The notes: generated by a model not told the origin, from the letters alone. DNA of 24,000 nt from Eggerthellales bacterium UBA1419 (GCA_002305585.1 DBPN01000056.1:18876-42875), one strand, 5' to 3'. Shown: positions 15,034 through 24,000, counted from the first letter of the stretch. Numbers and translations: made by a program.

Positions 15034-15510
15034 ATGACCGCCAAGAAGCCCGAGCGTGAATTCCTAGCCCGCAACCGTCGGGCGCATTTCGACTACACCA
15101 TCGACGAGGTTTTCGAGGCGGGAATCGCACTCACCGGAACCGAGGTACGATCATTACGTGAAGGTGGCGGCCAGCTGACCGACACCTTCGCGTTGGTGCG
15201 TGGTGGTGAAGTCTGGCTGCACGGTCTGCATATTAAGCCGTACAGTCATGGAAACCGCGCCAATCCCGAACCGGACCGCAAGCGAAAACTTCTGTTGCAT
15301 AAGAAACAGATTCGCTACCTGGAGGGCAAGGTGAGCAAGGCGGGTATGGCACTGGTGCCGTTGAGCCTGTATTTCTCGGATGCCGGGCTGGTCAAGGTGG
15401 AGATAGCTCTAGCCCGTGGTAAGAAGACATATGATAAGCGTGACAGCGTGGCTGCACGTGAGAGTAAGATCGACATCGAACGTGCGCTCAAGGAGCGCAA
15501 CCGGTCGTAG
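15034..15510 (+). CDS. smpB: SsrA-binding protein SmpB
   Basis: 158 aa. Sequences NRRAHFDYTIDEVFEAGIALTGTEVRSLR and RKRKLLLHKKQI are characteristic SmpB sequence. A TAAGGAA SD precedes the ATG. Confidence 0.96.
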   Translation: MTAKKPEREFLARNRRAHFDYTIDEVFEAGIALTGTEVRSLREGGGQLTDTFALVRGGEVWLHGLHIKPYSHGNRANPEPDRKRKLLLHKKQIRYLEGKVSKAGMALVPLSLYFSDAGLVKVEIALARGKKTYDKRDSVAARESKIDIERALKERNRS

Positions 15511-15618: not shown

Positions 15619-16062
15619 ATGAACTACGCAGACTTGCAAAACGAGATAAAGATGGCCCTTAAGGCCCAAGACAAGACCAAGCTCTCAATACTCAGGCAAT
15701 GGCATGGCGAGATCAAGAACATCGAAGTGGACGAGCGTCGTGAGATCACCGACCAGGATGTCGATGCAATGTGCAGACGGATGATCAAGCAGACTCGAGA
15801 GACGCTGGAGGGGTCGATAAAAGCAGCCAACGATGTTCAACGCACCGAGATGCTCACCCGTCAAGTCGGGATTCTTGAAAACTACCTCCCCAAGCAGGTG
15901 GAGGGCGAGGAACTTGTTTCGCTCATCGACAAGGTGCTGGCAGAGACCGGTGCAACAAACAAGAAGGAAATGGGTGCAGTGATGGCGGCACTCAACGCCG
16001 CTACCGGTGGCAATCTGGACAAACGTGCTGCTGCGGTAGAACTCGGCAAGCGTCTGAGCTGA
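15619..16062 (+). CDS. GatB/YqeY domain-containing protein
   Basis: MNYADLQNEIKMALKAQDKTKLSILR... and ...KKEMGAVMAALNAATGGNLDKRAAAVELGKRL match the YqeY pattern. The ATG at 15619 has a GAGGA SD 7 nt upstream. The ORF-track start at 15565 lacks one. Confidence 0.85.
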   Translation: MNYADLQNEIKMALKAQDKTKLSILRQWHGEIKNIEVDERREITDQDVDAMCRRMIKQTRETLEGSIKAANDVQRTEMLTRQVGILENYLPKQVEGEELVSLIDKVLAETGATNKKEMGAVMAALNAATGGNLDKRAAAVELGKRLS

Positions 16063-16090
16063 GCTAGATTCCATAATTCCTTAAATATTG

Positions 16091-16119
16091 TTGTTCCAGA
16101 TTGAGGCTAATGCTATCAT
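16091..16119 (+). promoter_or_regulatory. Candidate sigma70-type promoter for the downstream ABC/ExbB-like operon
   Basis: TTGTTC (16091-16096), a 17-nt spacer, then TATCAT (16114-16119). It sits in the only AT-rich intergenic stretch of the window. The -35 overlaps the first TTCCAGATT repeat copy. This is a prediction by eye only. Confidence 0.3.
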
Positions 16120-16185
16120 TGGACGTGCCTGGAATAAAAATAAAAACAATCAAGAATAGTCCTATTCCAGATTAATAGCTGTCAA

Positions 16186-16214
16186 AGCCCTCCCCGAGGG
16201 TTATTGGTTTTTGT
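16186..16214 (+). terminator. Short GC hairpin followed by a T-rich tract. It may be the yqeY terminator or a leader attenuator.
   Basis: CCCTC (16188-16192) pairs with GAGGG (16196-16200) around a CCC loop. The stem can be extended by G-U and A-T pairs. The tail is ttattggtttttgt, with TTTTT at 16208-16212. The short stem and the displaced T-run make this weak. Confidence 0.3.
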
Positions 16215-16369
16215 AAAGGGGTGTTTGGCAAATAGCTGGTTCAAAGGACACATACGCCTCTCTTCGCGCTGAAGTTGAAACGGTTGGCCCTGTCGTCGAT
16301 GCCTGTGACAAGACTGAGTCTGCTGCCTTAGAGGTTTTCTCGACCGAGCATGTACGGAAAAGGATCATC

Positions 16370-17437
16370 TTGCTGTTCTTCGCCCTCATGGGTGTCGCAT
16401 TGATCTCATTTGGACTTGGGCGCTATTTCGTCGCACCTGCGGAGATCGTTCGGGCGACGGGCGAACAGCTGCACCAGCTGACTTTGGACCTTGGCGCGTT
16501 TCTGCAATCCATCGCCAATTGGTTCGATGTCACCTTCAATGGTGCCAAGTCCGTTACGGCTCAATCACCCAGCGTCATCGTCGATCTTAAAGCCAACGCC
16601 GCTTTGTTCAACATCCGCTTTCCACGAATCGTCGTCGTGGTTCTAGTAGGTATGGCGCTTTCGGTTGCCGGCGCTGCATATCAGGGTATGTTCAAGAATC
16701 CGCTCGTGTCGCCCGATCTTCTAGGCGCTTCAGCCGGGGCATCCTTTGGTGCCTGCCTGGCGTTACTGCTGAACTATGGCAACGAACTTATTCAGCTGTT
16801 CGCTTTTCTCGGTGGTATGACGGCTGTCTTCTTGGTGATGTGGCTGAACAAGATGGTGCGTTCAGATGCGATACTTGGTTTGATCCTAGGCGGCATCCTT
16901 GTAGGCACGTTGTTCTCCAGTGGTACTTCGATCATCAAACTGGTGGCGGATGCCGATGACAAATTACCCGCCATCACCTTCTGGCTGATGGGATCGTTCG
17001 CCTCGATCACTGTTCGTGACATGCTGACCATCCTGGTGCCGATGTTGGCGGGGTTCTCGATACTGCTCAGTCAGCGCTGGAGCTTGAATGTGCTCAGCTT
17101 TGGCGAAGACGAGGCAAAGAGTCTGGGAGTCAATACAACCCGCACCCGCACGTTGGTGATCATTGGCGCCACGCTATTGACGTCATGCTCGGTGGCCATC
17201 GCCGGTGTGATCGGCTGGATAGGACTGGTGGTGCCACACCTGACTCGAGCTATCGTTGGTCCAAACTACAAGATATTACTGCCAACTACGATGCTGGTAG
17301 GGTCGATATTCCTTCTGCTCGTGGATAACTTCGCCCGACTGCTTTATTCCGTCGAGATCCCCATCGGACTGTTGACCTCGATATTGGGCGTACCGTTCTT
17401 CGCTTTCATCTATCGCAAGAACATGAAGGGATGGTAG
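16370..17437 (+). CDS. FecCD/BtuC-family ABC permease (iron-chelate, haem or cobalamin type)
   Basis: Motifs include FPRIVVVVLVGMALSVAGAAYQGMFKNPLVSPDLLGASAGASFG, GWIGLVVPHLTRAIVGPNYKILLP and VEIPIGLLTSILGVPFFAFIY. The TTG start at 16370 has an AGGA SD (16361-16364) 5 nt upstream. No other in-frame start occurs upstream after the stop at 16214-16216. The ATG at 16388 is an alternative. Confidence 0.9.
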   Translation: MLFFALMGVALISFGLGRYFVAPAEIVRATGEQLHQLTLDLGAFLQSIANWFDVTFNGAKSVTAQSPSVIVDLKANAALFNIRFPRIVVVVLVGMALSVAGAAYQGMFKNPLVSPDLLGASAGASFGACLALLLNYGNELIQLFAFLGGMTAVFLVMWLNKMVRSDAILGLILGGILVGTLFSSGTSIIKLVADADDKLPAITFWLMGSFASITVRDMLTILVPMLAGFSILLSQRWSLNVLSFGEDEAKSLGVNTTRTRTLVIIGATLLTSCSVAIAGVIGWIGLVVPHLTRAIVGPNYKILLPTTMLVGSIFLLLVDNFARLLYSVEIPIGLLTSILGVPFFAFIYRKNMKGW

Positions 17438-17443
17438 CGGAAA

Positions 17444-18325
17444 ATGGTGAGCTTTAAGAAGCCAGGTACTCAAGAACAGCCTGTTGAGGCTGAGGCGCCA
17501 GGCTTGCTGCAGGTACAGGAACTGGTTGCTGGCTATGGCAGGAAAGAGATCGTTCATGGTATCAGCTTCGAGATGGATCGTGGTGAGTTCGTCTGCATAA
17601 TCGGTGCGAATGGCTGTGGCAAGACAACAGCGCTGCGCAGTATACTCGGCCTGCTTCCAGTTATGTCGGGCAAGATATTCATCAACGATGTGGATACGGC
17701 GTCGATGTCCATTCGCCGTAAAGCCAGGCACTTCGCTTATATCCCTCAGGTGCACGTGCCGCCATTCCCGTTCAAGGTTGCAGATGTTGTGTTGCTTGGG
17801 AGAACGCCGCATCTGGCCAGTAGCGTGTCTGACGTCTCCAAGCGCGACAAGGTCATTGCCTATCAGGCCATGCAGCAATTATCGATTGAACATCTTGCAG
17901 AGCGGGAGTACACCGAACTTTCCGGTGGCCAACAACAGCTTGTCCTGATTGCCCGTGCTCTGGCGCAGGAGCCGGATATCCTGGTGATGGACGAGCCCAC
18001 GGCCTCATTGGATTTTGGTAATCAGCAACTGGTGCTGACCCGCCTGCACAAACTGTCTCGTGATGGTGTCTCTGTCTTGATGGTAACTCATGATCCCGAC
18101 CATGCGTTGTTCTGTGCCGATCGGGTTATCGTCATGGAGCAGGGTGTCATCATATGTACGGGTAACCCAGTCGATGTCATTACTTCAGAGATCATGCATC
18201 GGATATATGGTACTCACGTGTACGTCGCTGATGTCATGGTGGGCGATTGTCGAGCGGTAAGGACCTGCGTGCCGCTGATGGCGGCCGATACAGACGATCG
18301 GGAAACTGGTGGGAGGTACCTGTGA
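17444..18325 (+). CDS. ABC transporter ATP-binding protein (FecE/BtuD/HmuV type)
   Basis: Walker A is GANGCGKTT, signature LSGGQQQLVLIARAL, Walker B ILVMDEPTASLD and H-loop MVTHDP. It starts 6 nt after the permease stop. Confidence 0.93.
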   Translation: MVSFKKPGTQEQPVEAEAPGLLQVQELVAGYGRKEIVHGISFEMDRGEFVCIIGANGCGKTTALRSILGLLPVMSGKIFINDVDTASMSIRRKARHFAYIPQVHVPPFPFKVADVVLLGRTPHLASSVSDVSKRDKVIAYQAMQQLSIEHLAEREYTELSGGQQQLVLIARALAQEPDILVMDEPTASLDFGNQQLVLTRLHKLSRDGVSVLMVTHDPDHALFCADRVIVMEQGVIICTGNPVDVITSEIMHRIYGTHVYVADVMVGDCRAVRTCVPLMAADTDDRETGGRYL

Positions 18326-19530
18326 CCGAGAAACGAGCACATCTAGAAGTGCAATCAGGACACCCGGATATTGAGCAATCATGTGGGTCCAATCCAGCAT
18401 CGGGTTTCTCGCGTCGTGATTTCTCCAAGCTGATCGCCACCGGGTTCGTGGTCACGTTGGCAGCTCCAATGCTCAGCGGCTGTAAGGAATATGCCGACGC
18501 CGTGATACTTGGCAAGCGCACAGTGACAGACCATGCCGGGCGTGAGGTGGAGATCCCCACACCTGAGGGTATCAAAAGCGTCTTCTTCACATCGTCGCTC
18601 GCCCAGGTTTATATCACTTCGCTGTGCCCCGATCTCCTCGGCGGCACCGCCAGCAAGTTCGACGCCGGGCAGTTGCGCTTCATGCCGGCCGGAGTTGATA
18701 AGCTTCCCTATCTGGGTACCATCCATAACAATGGCGAGATCGACCGCGAGTCCCTGCTCACCGAGGATATCGACATCATGTTCTCGATCAGTGGTATCGA
18801 GCTCACGCAGCAAAACGTCTCGGAGGCCATAGGGTTACAGGATCAGACACATATACCTTGCCTGTTGGTGGATGGTTCCTTCGACAAGATTCCAGAGGCG
18901 TTCCGTTTCCTGGGCGACATCCTTGGACGCGAGGAACGTGCCGAGGAGCTGGCAAGTTTCTGCGAGCGCAGCTATACCAGTGTCCGCGATGTCGTGCAGA
19001 CCATACCCCAGGAAGAGCGAGTCAGACTGTATTACGCCGAGGGACCGGAAGGCCTGCAGACAGAGCCGGAGACATCACAGCACATGTTGGGCTTCCTCGA
19101 AGCTGGGGCGATATGTGTCGCTGATTGTGAGGAAACCTACGGCGGCGGTATGACCGATGTCTCGTTGGAACAGGTACTGACCTGGGATCCTGAGGTGATC
19201 ATCGCCTGGGATACCGAGCAACGCGGTGGCGCAGCCGAGGATATCCTCACCAATCCTGACTGGGCTCAGATCCAAGCAGTCAAAGAGGACCGAGTGTATG
19301 CGATGCCCAATGAACCGTGGGCCTGGTGCGATCGTCCTCCTGGCGTGAATCGGATCCTGGGTATCCACTGGGTGGCCAATCTACTTTACCCCGACATCTA
19401 TGACGTGGATATCAAAGAGATCATAAAAGAGTTCTTCAAGGTGATGTATCAGGTTGATGTCGATGATCAGACGGTAGAGGGGCTGCTGGGGAACTCCTAT
19501 CCACCACCACCACGTAAGGATAAGCAATAA
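18322..19530 (+). CDS. Class III (Peripla_BP_2-type) substrate-binding lipoprotein with a twin-arginine signal
   Basis: The GTG at 18322 overlaps the ATPase stop (GTGA), with a GGAGG SD 5 nt upstream. The signal is SRRDFSKLIATGFVVTLAAPMLSGC, combining a Tat motif and a lipobox Cys54. The body shows chelate-SBP features: VFFTSSLAQVYITSL, DIDIMFSISG, PEVIIAWD and VYAMPNEPWAWCDRPPGVNRILGIHW. Confidence 0.85.
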   Translation: MTEKRAHLEVQSGHPDIEQSCGSNPASGFSRRDFSKLIATGFVVTLAAPMLSGCKEYADAVILGKRTVTDHAGREVEIPTPEGIKSVFFTSSLAQVYITSLCPDLLGGTASKFDAGQLRFMPAGVDKLPYLGTIHNNGEIDRESLLTEDIDIMFSISGIELTQQNVSEAIGLQDQTHIPCLLVDGSFDKIPEAFRFLGDILGREERAEELASFCERSYTSVRDVVQTIPQEERVRLYYAEGPEGLQTEPETSQHMLGFLEAGAICVADCEETYGGGMTDVSLEQVLTWDPEVIIAWDTEQRGGAAEDILTNPDWAQIQAVKEDRVYAMPNEPWAWCDRPPGVNRILGIHWVANLLYPDIYDVDIKEIIKEFFKVMYQVDVDDQTVEGLLGNSYPPPPRKDKQ

Positions 19531-19531
19531 G

Positions 19532-21685
19532 ATGCAGACAAGAGGTTCATATCTGTCGCGCTGGTTGCGGACCATCCGGGATACGCTGGTGCTGTTCGTG
19601 GCCGTGCTGCTGATCATGACTCAGCTGCCATTGACCGCTCTGGCCGAAAGCGCGCTCGCAGACCCCGATCCCCAGCCGGTGGATGCCCAGGTGCCCAGCA
19701 TCTCCGTATCGCCTCTGAGCGCCTCCTACACCCAAGGCGACTCTCCGGCTGCATTGAATGTAGCTGCCAGTGTCAGCGATGGCGGAACGCTCTCCTATCA
19801 GTGGTATGGCAACAGCGTTGACAGCACAGCGGGCGGTTGGGCAGCAGGAAGCGGCACCTCATTGCTGCCTGCGACAGACACTGTGGGAACAACCTACTAT
19901 TATGTCGTCATCACCAACACCAACAGTCAGGCCACCGGCGCTCAGACTGCCAGCGCAACTACTGGCTTCGCTGCAATCACCGTCATCGCGCCTGCGGATG
20001 ATCCTTCTCCGATAGACACAGACCATGTGACTCAGCTGATATTGAAATACGAAGACCCCGACACTCCGAATAAGTACTATCCCGTTGGCGAAGATGGCGA
20101 TGCCAGCCATAAGTGGTTGCAGATCGATCAGAAGGGCGAGAAGGTTCAGCTTGTGGTCTATTACAAGACCGAGCAACATCCCTATAGCGAATTCTCTGCG
20201 GCCAATGGTTCTGAGAACCTCGGCGAGATACCTCTGGTTTGGCAATCCAGCGATAACAACATCGCAACAGTTGGTCCCGACGGTGTGGTCACTCCACGTG
20301 GCAACGGCACGGTAACCATCACGGCTACTGTCGGTCTTTCCGATCCCTTGAAATACGAGGGCACAGCTCCCTATCGAAGCGTTGTCATCATCTTTGATGG
20401 CCAGGATGGCGAATATGTGAGCGAGGTGACCATCATCGACGAAGAAGGCGTCGATATGGGTCGCAAAGCCGGGACTACTAAGCTGTTTGGCAAACTGGAT
20501 ACGCACTTCAAGTTCTATGCCCAGATCACCTGGACTGATGCTGACGGGAACACCCGTGTCGAGGATACTCGCAACGATAAACCCAGCTCGTCAGTCAAGT
20601 GGTCGATAGGCGGGTCGACGATACCGGCGTCGATCAATGAGGATACCGGTACTCTCACCCTCACCCAGTATTCTGGCAATGCCTATGTCATCTGCTCGGT
20701 TACCGGTGGCTTGTTTGGCGAAACCGTACGGGATTATGCTCAGTTCCAGCTGGATACCGGTCAATATGAATATAACCCCAGCGACTCCTTGACACTTAAG
20801 GTGGTCTATCAGGAGTATCCGGACAAGGTGGTGCAGGAGCATACATACAGTTACTCAGAATTGCTTGGCAGCCTGAGTTCTTATACCTACAACTATACGA
20901 TCATGCGCGGGTTTGACTATGGCTGCATCAGAGCCCAGGGCTTCCTTTTCAAGGATGTGATGGATCTGGAGGGTATCAAACTGGAAGAAGTGTATCAGTT
21001 CCGTTTTGGCACTATGGACGGTTATGATAACCCCGTCACCTATCAGCTATTGTACGGATCTGGGCCCCGTTATTTCTTCCCCAATCTTGATATCAGCAGC
21101 AAATCCGGCGCTACGGTTGTGCCGCCGATGCTGGCATATAGCAGTGCTACCGTCTGGAACCAGTCAGAAGTCGACCCCTCACTCGCTCTCGATGACGGGA
21201 CTCGGTTCAGATTGGTGTTTGGCCCTCTGTGGTCAGGAGAGACCAACTCCGCCTATCAGATCTACTACATCCATACCATCACCGTCGTCATGGCGGGCGC
21301 TCCACCAGTCACTCCAGGCGACGGCGACGATGATGGCGGCGGCGGTGGTACTGGAGATGAGAACAATGGCAGCGATCAAAGTGGCGATGGTCTAGCTGGC
21401 GTAAAAGGTGTCAATGGCTCAGCGGGAACAGAGCTGGTCGATCCCGGCGGAGCAGACAATGACGCAACCGATGAGAGCGGCGAAGGTGCCGCGGGTGCAC
21501 TTAGCGCAACTGATGGTGAAGGTCGTGGCTGGCGGGTCTATGAAATGATGAGCAAGGCACAGTCTCAGCTCGCGCCATTGGAGTACGACAATCCGCTATC
21601 GCCCTTTGCGGCACCGGTTGGTTTTGCAAGCGTGGCGGCAGGAGTCGGTTTCACGTACCTGGGATTTAAAAGGAGGCTGTTTTAA
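19532..21685 (+). CDS. 717-aa cell-surface protein with a signal peptide, Ig-like/Big_2-like domains, a C-proximal beta-rich module, a Gly/Asp linker and a C-terminal TM tail anchor
   Basis: The signal peptide is LVLFVAVLLIMTQLPLTALA/ES. One Ig-like module reads LSYQWYGNS...GTTYYYVVITNT. A Big_2-like module reads LVWQSSDNNIATVGPDGVVTPRGNGTVTITATV, and a second one reads VKWSIGGS...TGTLTLTQYSGNAYVICSV. The acidic Gly-rich linker is GDGDDDGGGGGTGDENNGSDQSGDG... The terminal TM is FAAPVGFASVAAGVGFTYLGF followed by KRRLF. There is no LPXTG motif. Confidence 0.85.
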   Translation: MQTRGSYLSRWLRTIRDTLVLFVAVLLIMTQLPLTALAESALADPDPQPVDAQVPSISVSPLSASYTQGDSPAALNVAASVSDGGTLSYQWYGNSVDSTAGGWAAGSGTSLLPATDTVGTTYYYVVITNTNSQATGAQTASATTGFAAITVIAPADDPSPIDTDHVTQLILKYEDPDTPNKYYPVGEDGDASHKWLQIDQKGEKVQLVVYYKTEQHPYSEFSAANGSENLGEIPLVWQSSDNNIATVGPDGVVTPRGNGTVTITATVGLSDPLKYEGTAPYRSVVIIFDGQDGEYVSEVTIIDEEGVDMGRKAGTTKLFGKLDTHFKFYAQITWTDADGNTRVEDTRNDKPSSSVKWSIGGSTIPASINEDTGTLTLTQYSGNAYVICSVTGGLFGETVRDYAQFQLDTGQYEYNPSDSLTLKVVYQEYPDKVVQEHTYSYSELLGSLSSYTYNYTIMRGFDYGCIRAQGFLFKDVMDLEGIKLEEVYQFRFGTMDGYDNPVTYQLLYGSGPRYFFPNLDISSKSGATVVPPMLAYSSATVWNQSEVDPSLALDDGTRFRLVFGPLWSGETNSAYQIYYIHTITVVMAGAPPVTPGDGDDDGGGGGTGDENNGSDQSGDGLAGVKGVNGSAGTELVDPGGADNDATDESGEGAAGALSATDGEGRGWRVYEMMSKAQSQLAPLEYDNPLSPFAAPVGFASVAAGVGFTYLGFKRRLF

Positions 21686-22476
21686 TGGGAGTTGAAGGTT
21701 TGACAACGTACGTGGCGGCAATATTGCACGGTGTGGCGCAGAATCTGATGGTACCGACGATGATAGTCCTGGTTCTCCTCATCGTCTTCGCGTTGTTCTG
21801 TGTTGGTTCGATCATCACCGAGATATTCACCGAGCGCAAGCATTTTAAAGCCAATGTACCGCGGATCATCAACGAGATCCATGACGTCGACTATAAGGAT
21901 GTAGAAAAGGTCGTGTCCCGTTCTGCCCTGCTCAATCCCCAGAAGCAGGCTCTGCTGATGATTGTACGCAACATGGGTCTTTCTGAAGATGACCTGTTCG
22001 CTTTAGCAAAAACCCAGATAGCCAAGGTCGATGATCGCTACAAACGCATTCTTTCCCACACGGAACAGGTGACCAAGATCGCACCGATGATGGGATTGAT
22101 GTGCACGTTGATCCCGCTTGGTCCCGGTATCGTAGCGATGGGACAAGGCGAAGTCACCCAACTTTCGATGTCGTTGTTGATAGCTTTCGACGGTACGGTC
22201 GCCGGTCTGGTTGCCGCTGTGGTCTCACTGTTGGTCACAGCCGTACGCAAGCGTTGGTACGCACATTACATGATCGTGCTGGAGGCTCTGATGACCAGCC
22301 TGCTGGATAAAGCCTCAGCCGCTCGTATCGCAGGAATCAAACTGCCGCATAACTACTATGAGACTGAAATGCATGCAACTGAATCCAAGGTAAGTAAAGG
22401 TATCCTGCCCGAGATCGAGACAGAAGAGTGCATCAAACGCGAGAGTGTTATAGAGCCACAACCTGCGAAGGGGTGA
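21685..22476 (+). CDS. MotA/TolQ/ExbB-family proton-channel protein
   Basis: 263 aa with three predicted TMs. The family signature is APMMGLMCTLIPLGPG (compare ExbB/TolQ xPxxGLxGTVxG). The last TM, LLIAFDGTVAGLVAAVVSLLV, retains the conserved Thr. The ATG shares its A with the upstream TAA (TAATG). Confidence 0.85.
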   Translation: MGVEGLTTYVAAILHGVAQNLMVPTMIVLVLLIVFALFCVGSIITEIFTERKHFKANVPRIINEIHDVDYKDVEKVVSRSALLNPQKQALLMIVRNMGLSEDDLFALAKTQIAKVDDRYKRILSHTEQVTKIAPMMGLMCTLIPLGPGIVAMGQGEVTQLSMSLLIAFDGTVAGLVAAVVSLLVTAVRKRWYAHYMIVLEALMTSLLDKASAARIAGIKLPHNYYETEMHATESKVSKGILPEIETEECIKRESVIEPQPAKG

Positions 22477-22943
22477 TGATCGTGGCACGTGATTTCAATT
22501 CGGGGATCTTCCTCAATGCCAGCCAAGATACCGCCGAGGATGTCGATCCGCGTATCGGCCTGGTCAATCTGGCCGATGTCATGTTGGTATTCGCCTGTGG
22601 ATTGATGCTGGCGTTAGTTAGCTACTGGAATCTCGATATGTCCAACCTGCAGGAGCTGGTGCAAAACGAACAAGTTGCCGAGGTCAGTGATATCGAGGAC
22701 CTGGAGGGGCAGCTCAATGGCATCGGTAGCGGTTACCAGGAACTGGGGATGGTGTATAAGGATCCAACAACCGGCAAGCTCTATATGCTCTCAGAGGATC
22801 TTGCCGGTGATGAGTCGGGTTCTGACTCGAGCTCATCAGGTGCCGCTTTAAGCTCAACGAACGATGTGTCGAGCTCGTCAGGTGCAGGCTCGGGCTCATC
22901 AGGTACGGTTTCGGACGTATCAGACACTGCAAGAGGGGAGTGA
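22476..22943 (+). CDS. Small single-pass membrane protein, ExbD/TolR-like (DUF2149-like), with a Ser/Gly/Asp-rich tail
   Basis: The ATG at 22476 shares its A with the upstream TGA (TGATG), and a GAAGGGG SD lies upstream. The TM region GLVNLADVMLVFACGLMLALV carries an Asp in a DVML context like ExbD/TolR (xxDVMLVLL). The C-terminus is GDESGSDSSSSGAALSSTNDVSSSSGAGSGSSGTVSDVSD. Confidence 0.75.
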   Translation: MIVARDFNSGIFLNASQDTAEDVDPRIGLVNLADVMLVFACGLMLALVSYWNLDMSNLQELVQNEQVAEVSDIEDLEGQLNGIGSGYQELGMVYKDPTTGKLYMLSEDLAGDESGSDSSSSGAALSSTNDVSSSSGAGSGSSGTVSDVSDTARGE

Positions 22944-22946
22944 GCC

Positions 22947-24000
22947 ATGCGTCGACCATCATCAGCTCTTAAGCTCGTTGTCTCGCTGCTTGTCGTGCTG
23001 TTCTGTTGTGGCTCTGTGACGGCTTTCGCAGCCGACAGCCAGGATGTTCACAGTGGAGATACCCTCACTTCTTCAGTACAGAGAGCGGGCGTTACCGTAC
23101 TTACAGACCCGATTTCTGGTAAAGACGTTGCTTTTTCCACTCCGCTGCAAACCCTTGCTGCCGGGGATCCCGATATCAGCTGGTATGACGATAGTCTAGA
23201 CTCCTTCACCCTTACCAAGGCAGAGCAGTTCCTGGGCTTATCGGTATTGGTTAACCAACAGCATAAAGATTTCACCGGTAAGACCGTGACGTTGGCCGCA
23301 ACTGTCAGCGGGGCCCCGGTCACACCGATTGGAACAGCGGAGCATCCGTTCAATGGAACATTCGATGGCGGCTATGATCGCAATAACTCCGTCAGTTACA
23401 TGTTATCGAATCTGACCGTCAACGCCACCAGTAAGTCCTATGTTGGAATCTTTGGCTACACGGGACCTGATTCTTCGATCAGGAACCTCTGGGTATACGG
23501 AGGAACGCTGAGCATCGATGAACAGGCGGCCGCAGGAGCGCAGATCAGCGATGTTGGCAGCATCGCCGGATATATGGGCGGTGACATCGATAACTGCGTG
23601 TCTTCGATGAACATCTCGATAACGAGCGAGCGCGAGGCAACTACCGATATCGTCGGCAATGTCTGCCGCGTTGGTGGCTTGGTTGGCTATCTGGCTGGTG
23701 ACATGCAGGGGTGCGCACGGGATATCAGCGACATCGCGATCGCCAGTGACTCGGATATACTGGAGAACATGCGCTACCTCGCAGGTGAGATCGGTGGGTT
23801 GGTAGGTGCACAAGGTGATACAAACGATATCGATATCGTGCCAACGATTAATGACTCCTTGAACAAGGGTAAGATCATCATGACCCTGACCGGTGCAGGC
23901 GGCAAGGATCGCTTTGGCGAACAGCTCTTCTCGGTCTCAGCCTGTGTGGGCGGAATAGTGGGGGCTACCACCGGAAGCGTCTATCGTTGTACCAATGAAG
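22947..24000 (+). CDS. Secreted surface protein with GLUG-type (GGLVG) beta-helix repeats, 3'-truncated by the window edge
   Basis: This ORF is not in the supplied ORF track. I translated it by hand from ATG 22947 (GAGGGGAG SD upstream), and it is open to base 24000. The signal peptide is LKLVVSLLVVLFCCGSVTAFA/AD. It contains HPFNGTFDGG...LSNLTV...YVGIFGY and repeated VGSIAGY, VGGLVGY, IGGLVGA and VGGIVGA motifs. Confidence 0.8.
   Translation, partial: MRRPSSALKLVVSLLVVLFCCGSVTAFAADSQDVHSGDTLTSSVQRAGVTVLTDPISGKDVAFSTPLQTLAAGDPDISWYDDSLDSFTLTKAEQFLGLSVLVNQQHKDFTGKTVTLAATVSGAPVTPIGTAEHPFNGTFDGGYDRNNSVSYMLSNLTVNATSKSYVGIFGYTGPDSSIRNLWVYGGTLSIDEQAAAGAQISDVGSIAGYMGGDIDNCVSSMNISITSEREATTDIVGNVCRVGGLVGYLAGDMQGCARDISDIAIASDSDILENMRYLAGEIGGLVGAQGDTNDIDIVPTINDSLNKGKIIMTLTGAGGKDRFGEQLFSVSACVGGIVGATTGSVYRCTNE

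Follow-up and report, generated by a model that had tools for sequence, protein, structure and literature searches.

We analyzed a 24,000-nucleotide (nt) chromosomal stretch of Eggerthellales bacterium UBA1419 (GCA_002305585.1 DBPN01000056.1:18876-42875), referred to here as the window, and focused on two adjoining genes in it. The first encodes a 263-amino-acid (aa) protein of the MotA/TolQ/ExbB family, which we call the A subunit, and the second encodes a 155-aa protein of the DUF2149 family, the B subunit. The pair lies in a cluster that opens with genes for an ATP-binding cassette (ABC) importer and its binding protein and that also encodes large surface proteins on either side of the pair (Table 1). 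Every real gene of the window is on the plus strand. The gene for the 717-aa surface protein meets the A-subunit gene in TAATG, and the A-subunit gene meets the DUF2149 gene in TGATG, where the ATG at 22476 overlaps the upstream TGA by 1 nt. A gap of 3 nt then precedes the GLUG protein gene. These overlapping or nearly touching junctions point to one transcript with coupled translation. Through the 1-nt overlaps, the pair is joined in one operon to the genes for the FecCD-type importer, its binding protein, and the large surface proteins. Homologs of the B subunit start at the same M-x-RDF, which favors the ATG at 22476 over a GTG further upstream.

Table 1. Features of the gene cluster, in window coordinates
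Feature	Position	Strand	Basis or content
Terminator-like hairpin of the preceding gene	16186-16211		Only useful outcome of the promoter/terminator scan
FecCD-family ABC importer permease, first gene of the cluster	16370..17437	+	Pfam FecCD, E 4.5e-81
ABC transporter ATPase	17444..18325	+	Pfam ABC_tran, E 3.7e-30
Substrate-binding protein, siderophore/heme/B12 class	18247..19530	+	Pfam Peripla_BP_2, E 7.9e-20
717-aa Big_2 surface protein	19532..21685	+	Signal peptide, Big_2, linker, C-terminal anchor
Domain X, residues about 400-622 of the 717-aa protein	20729..21397	+	Distantly Oxidored_molyb-like
C-terminal anchor module of the 717-aa protein	21512..21682	+	GWRVYEMMSKAQSQLAPLEYDNPLSPF, membrane helix with conserved Gly, then KRRLF
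MotA/TolQ/ExbB-family A subunit, 263 aa	21685..22476	+	Pfam PF01618
DUF2149 B subunit, 155 aa	22476..22943	+	Pfam PF09919
Conserved extracytoplasmic beta-hairpin G91-M-V-Y-K-D-P-T-T-G-K-L-Y-M104 of the B subunit	22746..22787	+	Conservation and AlphaFold2 (AF2) model
Ser/Gly/Asp-rich tail of the B subunit	22797..22940	+	Variable; predicted local distance difference test (pLDDT) below 50
Giant GLUG-motif surface protein, start only, cut by the window end	22947..24000	+	Pfam Glug

Family, fold, and channel residues of the pair

The A subunit matched PF01618 with 33.9 bits (cutoff, 22.9; E 3e-8) and has three membrane helices, at about residues 22-48, 131-153, and 160-187. Its AF2 model reached a pLDDT of 88.5. 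Foldseek ranked ExbB structures first (5zfp, 5sv0, 6tyi, and 9ddo), then TolQ, and then MotA, PomA, and ZorA, with template modeling scores of 0.55-0.68 against the ExbB/TolQ structures. As modeled, the A subunit has an ExbB/TolQ-type fold of three membrane helices and long cytoplasmic helices. PADLOC defense-system profiles, including the Zorya-like ones, matched neither the pair nor the 717-aa protein, and we rejected a Zorya-like or other defense motor.

The first-pass annotation of the window had proposed that the pair keeps the channel residues of known proton-driven motors, and all four residues that it named lie where it had put them: Thr141 in GLMCT (codon 22105-22107), Asp169 (22189-22191) and Thr171 (22195-22197) in FDGTVAGL, and Asp34 of the B subunit in LADVMLVF (gat, 22575-22577). 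As reference motors we used ExbB, ExbD, TolQ, and TolR of Escherichia coli MG1655, for which we confirmed that the literature numbering applies. Both phmmer and hhalign aligned Thr141 exactly with ExbB T148 and Thr171 exactly with ExbB T181, and both residues were invariant in 30/30 A-subunit homologs. Asp169 aligned with ExbB L179, outside the column of ExbB E176 and TolQ E173, and thus the channel-residue claim held for the two threonines and not for Asp169. The shift of the acidic residue is real, because the strong T-x-x-G-L-V-A-A match leaves a gap impossible. Asp169 lies three residues, or about one helical turn, past the Glu column on the same helix and is still in the outer half of that helix; it was kept in 29 of the 30 homologs, the remaining one having Asn.

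The B subunit matched PF09919 (DUF2149) over residues 28-104 with 40 bits (cutoff, 27.1; E 5e-10). It has one membrane helix, at about residues 28-51 (22557-22628), which contains Asp34 and is preceded by a conserved cytoplasmic EDxDPRxG. Alignment of DUF2149 alignments by hhalign placed Asp34 at the position of ExbD D25 and TolR D23, as had been claimed. Asp34 was invariant in 60/60 diverse DUF2149 representatives, among which Leu37 and Gly91 were the only other invariant columns. Profile alignment had been set beforehand as the test that could refute the channel assignment. In it, Asp34, Thr141, and Thr171 fell on the conserved positions, and Asp169, read strictly, did not.

A profile search of 1.84 billion representatives returned 526 DUF2149 clusters at E≤0.001, with a usual length of 100-115 aa. 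In a separate listing of homologs of the B subunit, all 120 entries carried PF09919. The B subunit therefore belongs, by its sequence, to a catalogued but uncharacterized family and is no novel oddity. The periplasmic alpha/beta domain of about 90 aa that is typical of ExbD and TolR is absent from it, as the first-pass annotation had noted. Pfam gave no match to PF02472 (ExbD/TolR) even at E≤10, DUF2149 alone being matched, and hhalign covered the helix alone; there was likewise no Pfam match to an OmpA-like peptidoglycan-binding domain of the MotB/PomB type. Past the helix, about 56 residues are followed by a 48-aa tail (residues 108-155), close to the single helix, about 60 outer residues, and tail of about 45 aa described before.

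The conserved outer part of the B subunit is a hairpin with the consensus G-x-V-Y-x-D-P-x-T-G-K-x-Y, in which G91, Y94, D96, T99, G100, and Y103 are invariant or nearly so. AF2 placed its strands at residues 93-95 and 102-104 with modest confidence. Outside the membrane, the B subunit has just a short helix and this hairpin, which at 14 residues is too short to serve alone as an output domain. A profile search of the PDB with DUF2149 returned ExbD helix peptides only weakly (E about 2), together with a designed-propeller beta-hairpin repeat: the hairpin (G-x-V-Y-x-D-x-x-T-G-K-x-Y) weakly resembles the blade hairpin of the designed "Cake" beta-propellers (PDB 6tjc/6tjb; G-T-I-Y-V-G-S-N-D-G-H-L-Y), and this likeness is probably just a generic hairpin signature. 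The DUF2149 model was too weak for a fold search to give any meaningful match. The tail (17 Ser, 8 Gly, 6 Asp, and 2 Glu) varies in length and sequence, is lineage specific, and is absent in many relatives.

Taken together, the placement and invariance of Asp34, Thr141, and Thr171, the A-subunit fold, and the tight coupling of the two genes fit a working ion-driven motor in which the B subunit does without an ExbD/TolR domain. The first-pass annotation had suggested such a motor with a different output. Residue placement and fold agree with the motor; the tail as its output was rejected, being unconserved and often missing. On balance, we judge that the pair is more likely than not a proton-driven motor of the ExbBD/TolQR/MotAB kind, of a DUF2149 (HmuU/HmuV-type) subtype, in a single-membrane bacterium. 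Proton conduction and motor activity are what we infer from these sequences.

The pair in related genomes

To place the pair in context, we scanned one genome per species and found at least 578 DUF2149 loci, the best 80 of which were used for open reading frame (ORF) calling and clustering. These 80 came almost wholly from Coriobacteriia and Clostridia, including Eggerthellaceae, Anaerovoracaceae, Oscillospiraceae, Pelotomaculum, and Syntrophomonas, and the closest relatives were metagenome-assembled genomes of Coriobacteriales and Clostridiales Family XIII. The DUF2149 gene directly followed the MotA/ExbB-family gene, and the two were adjacent in all loci examined. Moreover, the order FecCD, ATPase, binding protein, Big_2 protein, MotA, DUF2149, and GLUG was identical in Coriobacteriales and Family XIII and thus in two phyla, Actinomycetota and Bacillota. 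A FecCD permease occupied the equivalent position at loci L007, L008, L009, L028, L036, and L038. Recurrent neighbors were FecCD/ATPase/binding-protein sets, energy-coupling factor (ECF)-type ABC_cobalt/CbiQ sets, small Oxidored_molyb-like proteins, and SLH proteins with a Shr-like hemoglobin-interacting domain. The CW_binding_2 proteins downstream of the pair and the SLH proteins of related loci point to a single-membrane envelope for the host, which appears to be Coriobacteriales-like.

A recent survey regards Ton components in such monoderms as probably nonfunctional (PMC12204202), and on that view the pair would be a vestigial Ton remnant. Consistently with this, no outer membrane component, TonB-dependent receptor, or TonB was seen in the window or its flank: Pfam results for about 20 window ORFs and for the genes in the 10 kb downstream at locus L001 contained neither TonB nor a TonB-dependent receptor. 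A decaying remnant fits poorly, however, with key residues that are invariant across the family, a gene order kept across Actinomycetota and Bacillota, 1-nt junction overlaps, and intact reading frames. We disfavor this explanation and consider it very improbable. A strongly conserved pair in the importer operons of single-membrane gut and sediment anaerobes contrasts with the survey view (PMC12204202).

We also considered that the motor serves the giant surface proteins, the proton-motive force controlling the display, retention, or conformation of the flanking GLUG and Big_2 proteins. SiiAB, which works with the adhesin SiiE in Salmonella, offers a model for this. The GLUG giant (cluster 4; 1100-2000 aa) precedes or follows the pair in 28 loci, Big_2 proteins flank the pair, and some loci have no transporter gene nearby, all of which would suit such a role. 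However, the same operons repeatedly contain genes for binding proteins and for ABC or ECF importers, type 1 secretion genes were not seen, and the characterized context of the family, the hmu operons of Bacteroidota, is nutrient acquisition. We therefore regard a motor for surface-protein display as unlikely and prefer one that is tied to uptake.

The importer genes of the window are consistent with that preference. The binding protein gave weak NCBIfam matches to ferrichrome, IsdE, and enterobactin binding proteins. It carries a twin-arginine-like SRRDFSK followed by a lipobox, LSGC, which suggests a lipoprotein exported by twin-arginine translocation. With the listed TTG start, its gene would overlap that of the ATPase by 79 nt; translation probably begins further downstream.

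Some related loci depart from this layout. In Clostridia loci such as L034, L039, L055, L066, L068, L073, and L077, the pair sits among ECF-type transporter genes (ABC_cobalt, CbiQ, and a double ATPase) and a Crp/HTH_17 regulator. The same type of locus has SLH proteins that resemble purple acid phosphatases and small membrane or secreted proteins that, by eye, resemble flavin mononucleotide-binding and 4Fe-4S proteins; the latter hint that a redox step takes place outside the cytoplasm. The Peripla_BP_2 binding protein of Gordonibacter comes after DUF2149. One such locus (L005) has the order 2527-aa protein, 222-aa and 172-aa proteins, MotA, DUF2149, and binding protein. Contigs labeled Phocaeicola dorei, Akkermansia muciniphila, and Methanomethylophilaceae (L019, L023, and L024) carry DUF2149 genes 50-60% identical to that of the window in the same gene order; these are probably misbinned metagenome contigs rather than true occurrences in those taxa.

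A shared C-terminal anchor on the adjoining surface proteins

Since neither the hairpin nor the tail is a good candidate for the output, we turn to the protein encoded next to the pair. The 717-aa protein has a signal peptide at its N terminus and an anchor at its C terminus, with a Big_2 Ig-like domain (about residues 236-268) and a low-complexity Gly/Asp linker in between. Proteins of this type (cluster 6) occur in 23 loci and mostly adjoin the pair or lie one gene off. The last 55 or so residues are common to three otherwise unrelated clusters that adjoin the pair, namely, the 717-aa type, a 460-aa Big_2 type, and a 1000-aa type. In all of them the module has the same order: W-R-V-Y-E-M, about 12 residues, (D/E)-N-P-x-x-P, a membrane helix with a near-invariant Gly, and (F/Y)-R-R-R.

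A hidden Markov model (HMM) of the anchor matched a same-strand ORF in 60 of 82 nonredundant DUF2149 loci, and the best match always lay 0-14 residues from the ORF stop. The anchor-bearing ORF ended less than 100 nt from motA in about 41 loci and stood directly after DUF2149 in about a dozen. By eye, at least 11 of the 22 HMM-negative loci have a divergent version of the anchor in the same position. The trio of MotA, DUF2149, and anchor protein was also seen around distant members of the DUF2149 family. In the reverse direction, we scanned metagenome contigs with an anchor-only peptide pattern from a narrower alignment. This returned four loci, and all three that had flanking DNA carry MotA (E about 1e-73 to 1e-75) and DUF2149 (E about 1e-36) about 4 kb downstream on the same strand.

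The two Gordonibacter genomes differ in this respect. At L005 the anchor HMM had no match, and the 2527-aa protein terminates in an LPXTG-like sorting signal, LASTGD; at L022, from a different Gordonibacter genome, a 710-aa anchor-bearing ORF lies just upstream of motA.

The module could be merely a sorting or anchoring signal, in which case the MotA/DUF2149 pair would have a role of its own, such as that of an ion channel accessory to the transporter. Its architecture of motif, helix, and basic cluster is like that of sortase and exosortase substrates, and NPxxP right before the helix recalls the NPxTx motifs of sortase B substrates. In contrast, no sortase-like gene was conserved in the clustered loci, the module has a further conserved motif, WRVYEM, some 20 residues before the helix, no NCBIfam model matches the module, and the module tracks the pair across the three unrelated protein clusters. 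We consider a pure sorting signal improbable. Instead, we propose that the adjacent anchor-bearing surface protein is a TonB-like third component and a likelier output of the motor than the hairpin or the tail.

Upstream of the anchor, the 717-aa protein contains a domain of about 200 aa, here called domain X, which it shares with the other anchor-bearing proteins and which an iterated HMM found in 163 proteins of the 80 related loci. Its carriers are wall-bound, S-layer-bound, and membrane-anchored proteins. PF00174 was weakly matched by 8 of 20 domain X members (best E, 4.8e-7), blastp linked the domain to clusters 8, 0, 63, 11, and 12, and a PDB search with its profile matched no solved structure by sequence. 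At locus L001, which holds the window's own cluster in full and where the GLUG protein has 1361 aa with CW_binding_2 repeats, the next gene encodes a 719-aa CW_binding_2 protein whose ORF, called as 736 aa, contains two copies of domain X.

The remainder of the window lies before the cluster and encodes a BTAD regulator, SecA, a release factor (PCRF and RF-1 domains), a split transketolase, FtsE/FtsX, an S41 peptidase, RNase R, an M42 peptidase, SmpB, and YqeY. The BTAD transcriptional activator domain is at the end of an ORF that enters from the left edge (1-1686) and has no visible tie to the cluster. SmpB is encoded at 15034-15510, yet neither transfer-messenger RNA nor any other Rfam family was detected across the 24-kb window.

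Proposed mechanism and comparison with known systems

In the mechanism that we propose, five A subunits would surround two DUF2149 helices, by analogy with the solved ExbBD and TolQR complexes, and protonation and deprotonation of Asp34 against Thr141 and Thr171 would drive movement. Asp169, in the outer half of the last helix, may be part of the path by which protons enter. The 717-aa protein would dock on the motor ring by its anchor helix, as the helices of TonB and TolA do in the structures of 2025, among them 9ddo and 9ddm, which were also among our structural matches. More speculatively, the DUF2149 hairpin may grip or pair with the WRVYEM strand, and the acidic cytoplasmic EDxDPR stretch may meet the basic tail of the anchor. 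Movement would change the conformation of domain X, a putative ligand-binding domain, and the tightly held ligand would then pass through the wall to the binding protein and on to the ABC importer. We guess that the ligand is an iron chelate or a tetrapyrrole (heme or a corrinoid) because of the importer type, the weak ferrichrome and IsdE matches, the nearby Shr-like domains, and the relationship to hmu.

Several observations weigh against a motor that works in this way. The likeness of the B subunit to ExbD is confined to the membrane helix (19-24 columns), with weak hhalign E values of 0.004-0.03, and the AF2 monomer model of DUF2149 is poor (pLDDT, 61). In the A subunit and its family, the column of ExbB E176 is Ile166. 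The anchor HMM had no match in 22 of the 82 loci, several of which show just a divergent helix, and in some of these loci the binding-protein gene adjoins the pair instead. The anchor profile gave three short, uninformative matches in a 5.8-billion-protein set; because this global search yielded almost nothing, three loci are the whole basis of the reverse association. The anchor helix runs from outside to inside, opposite to the helices of TonB and TolA, and the analogy of docking may break down for that reason. Finally, scans of the window found no recognizable regulator site and no riboswitch. For cobalamin or other riboswitches upstream of the operon, there was none at the gathering score in the window and none at E≤1 in 15900-16500.

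With these points in mind, we put forward only tentatively the fuller picture of a three-part Ton counterpart in single-membrane anaerobes (Coriobacteriia and many Clostridia). Its parts would be a ring of ExbB-like subunits, DUF2149 as a minimal axle, and a surface receptor that docks by its conserved C-terminal anchor (WRVYEM, NPxxP, helix, and RRR), and it would use the proton-motive force to release tightly bound iron chelates or tetrapyrroles, or relay them, across the wall to ABC or ECF importers. The HmuTUV proteins of Bacteroidota would be its double-membrane version.

Ton, Tol, and flagellar stators are explained by the need to energize an outer membrane or a rotor. If the pair is a working motor, bacteria that have no outer membrane can energize uptake across a thick wall, and the uncharacterized HmuU/HmuV of abundant gut Bacteroidota gain a testable mechanism. 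Asp34, Thr141, Thr171, Asp169, and the partner motif are concrete targets for mutation, and genetic tools exist for Eggerthella or Gordonibacter (PMC9734109).

Among known motors, the MotA-MotB and PomA-PomB stators and ZorAB belong to the same superfamily and share the conserved Asp in the B-subunit helix. Unlike them, the system described here has no OmpA-like domain and no flagellar genes nearby, and its structural matches to them are weaker than those to ExbB and TolQ. The resemblance to Ton and Tol is closer. The A subunit shares their fold, and a Thr/Thr/Asp triad occupies the positions equivalent to T148, T181, and D25. The putative third protein places a single helix beside the motor and a long low-complexity linker before a distal domain, and, as in Ton, the system is linked to an iron-type importer. 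The system differs from both in that its B subunit has no ExbD/TolR periplasmic domain, its last A-subunit helix carries the acidic residue three positions further on, and there is neither an outer membrane nor a TonB box partner. Unlike TonB and TolA, the putative third component is anchored C-terminally, has the reversed helix direction, and lacks their C-terminal domain.

The arrangement of surface proteins is similar to that of the Isd heme relay, in which wall-bound and membrane-bound proteins share one type of ligand-binding domain upstream of a Peripla_BP_2 protein and a FecCD permease. Unlike Isd, the system here has no NEAT domains and no sortase, and it has a putative proton motor, which Isd lacks.

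The same pair of families is known from the hmuYRSTUV heme operons of Bacteroidota, where MotA/ExbB and DUF2149 are HmuU and HmuV (PMC11681262, PMC10434189, and PMC10100974 Table S4). These are called ExbB/ExbD-like and are assumed to power HmuR via TonB, a function stated to be untested (PMC11681262, PMC10434189, and PMC10100974). The operons are regulated by iron and heme (PMC10434189, PMC11681262, and PMC10100974), and the pair lies within a metal or tetrapyrrole acquisition operon (PMC11681262, PMC10100974 Table S4, and PMC13227078). Porphyromonas gingivalis PG1555/PG1556 and Bacteroides thetaiotaomicron WP_008763053/WP_008765016 have the same PF01618 and PF09919 domains in the same order as the window. 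In a set of 4488 Bacteroidota species, HmuT, HmuU, and HmuV are found together much more consistently than HmuY, HmuR, or HmuS, and 337 species, for instance, have TUV only (PMC10100974 Table S5). This pattern suggests that HmuTUV is a self-contained core, in which HmuT may be the third component in Bacteroidota.

In contrast to Hmu, the window belongs to a single-membrane host. It has no multihelix HmuT; by Pfam, HmuY, TonB-dependent HmuR, and CobN-like HmuS are absent from it and from the 10 kb downstream, and CobN was not found among the Pfam-scanned representatives of recurrent neighbor clusters. The partners of the window pair are instead the FecCD ABC importer, the binding protein, and the surface proteins with the C-terminal anchor. 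Our literature search found no described single-membrane ExbB/DUF2149 system. The DUF2149 family itself was already known; the setting, with a single-membrane host, an ABC importer, and a conserved anchor-bearing partner, is the new part.

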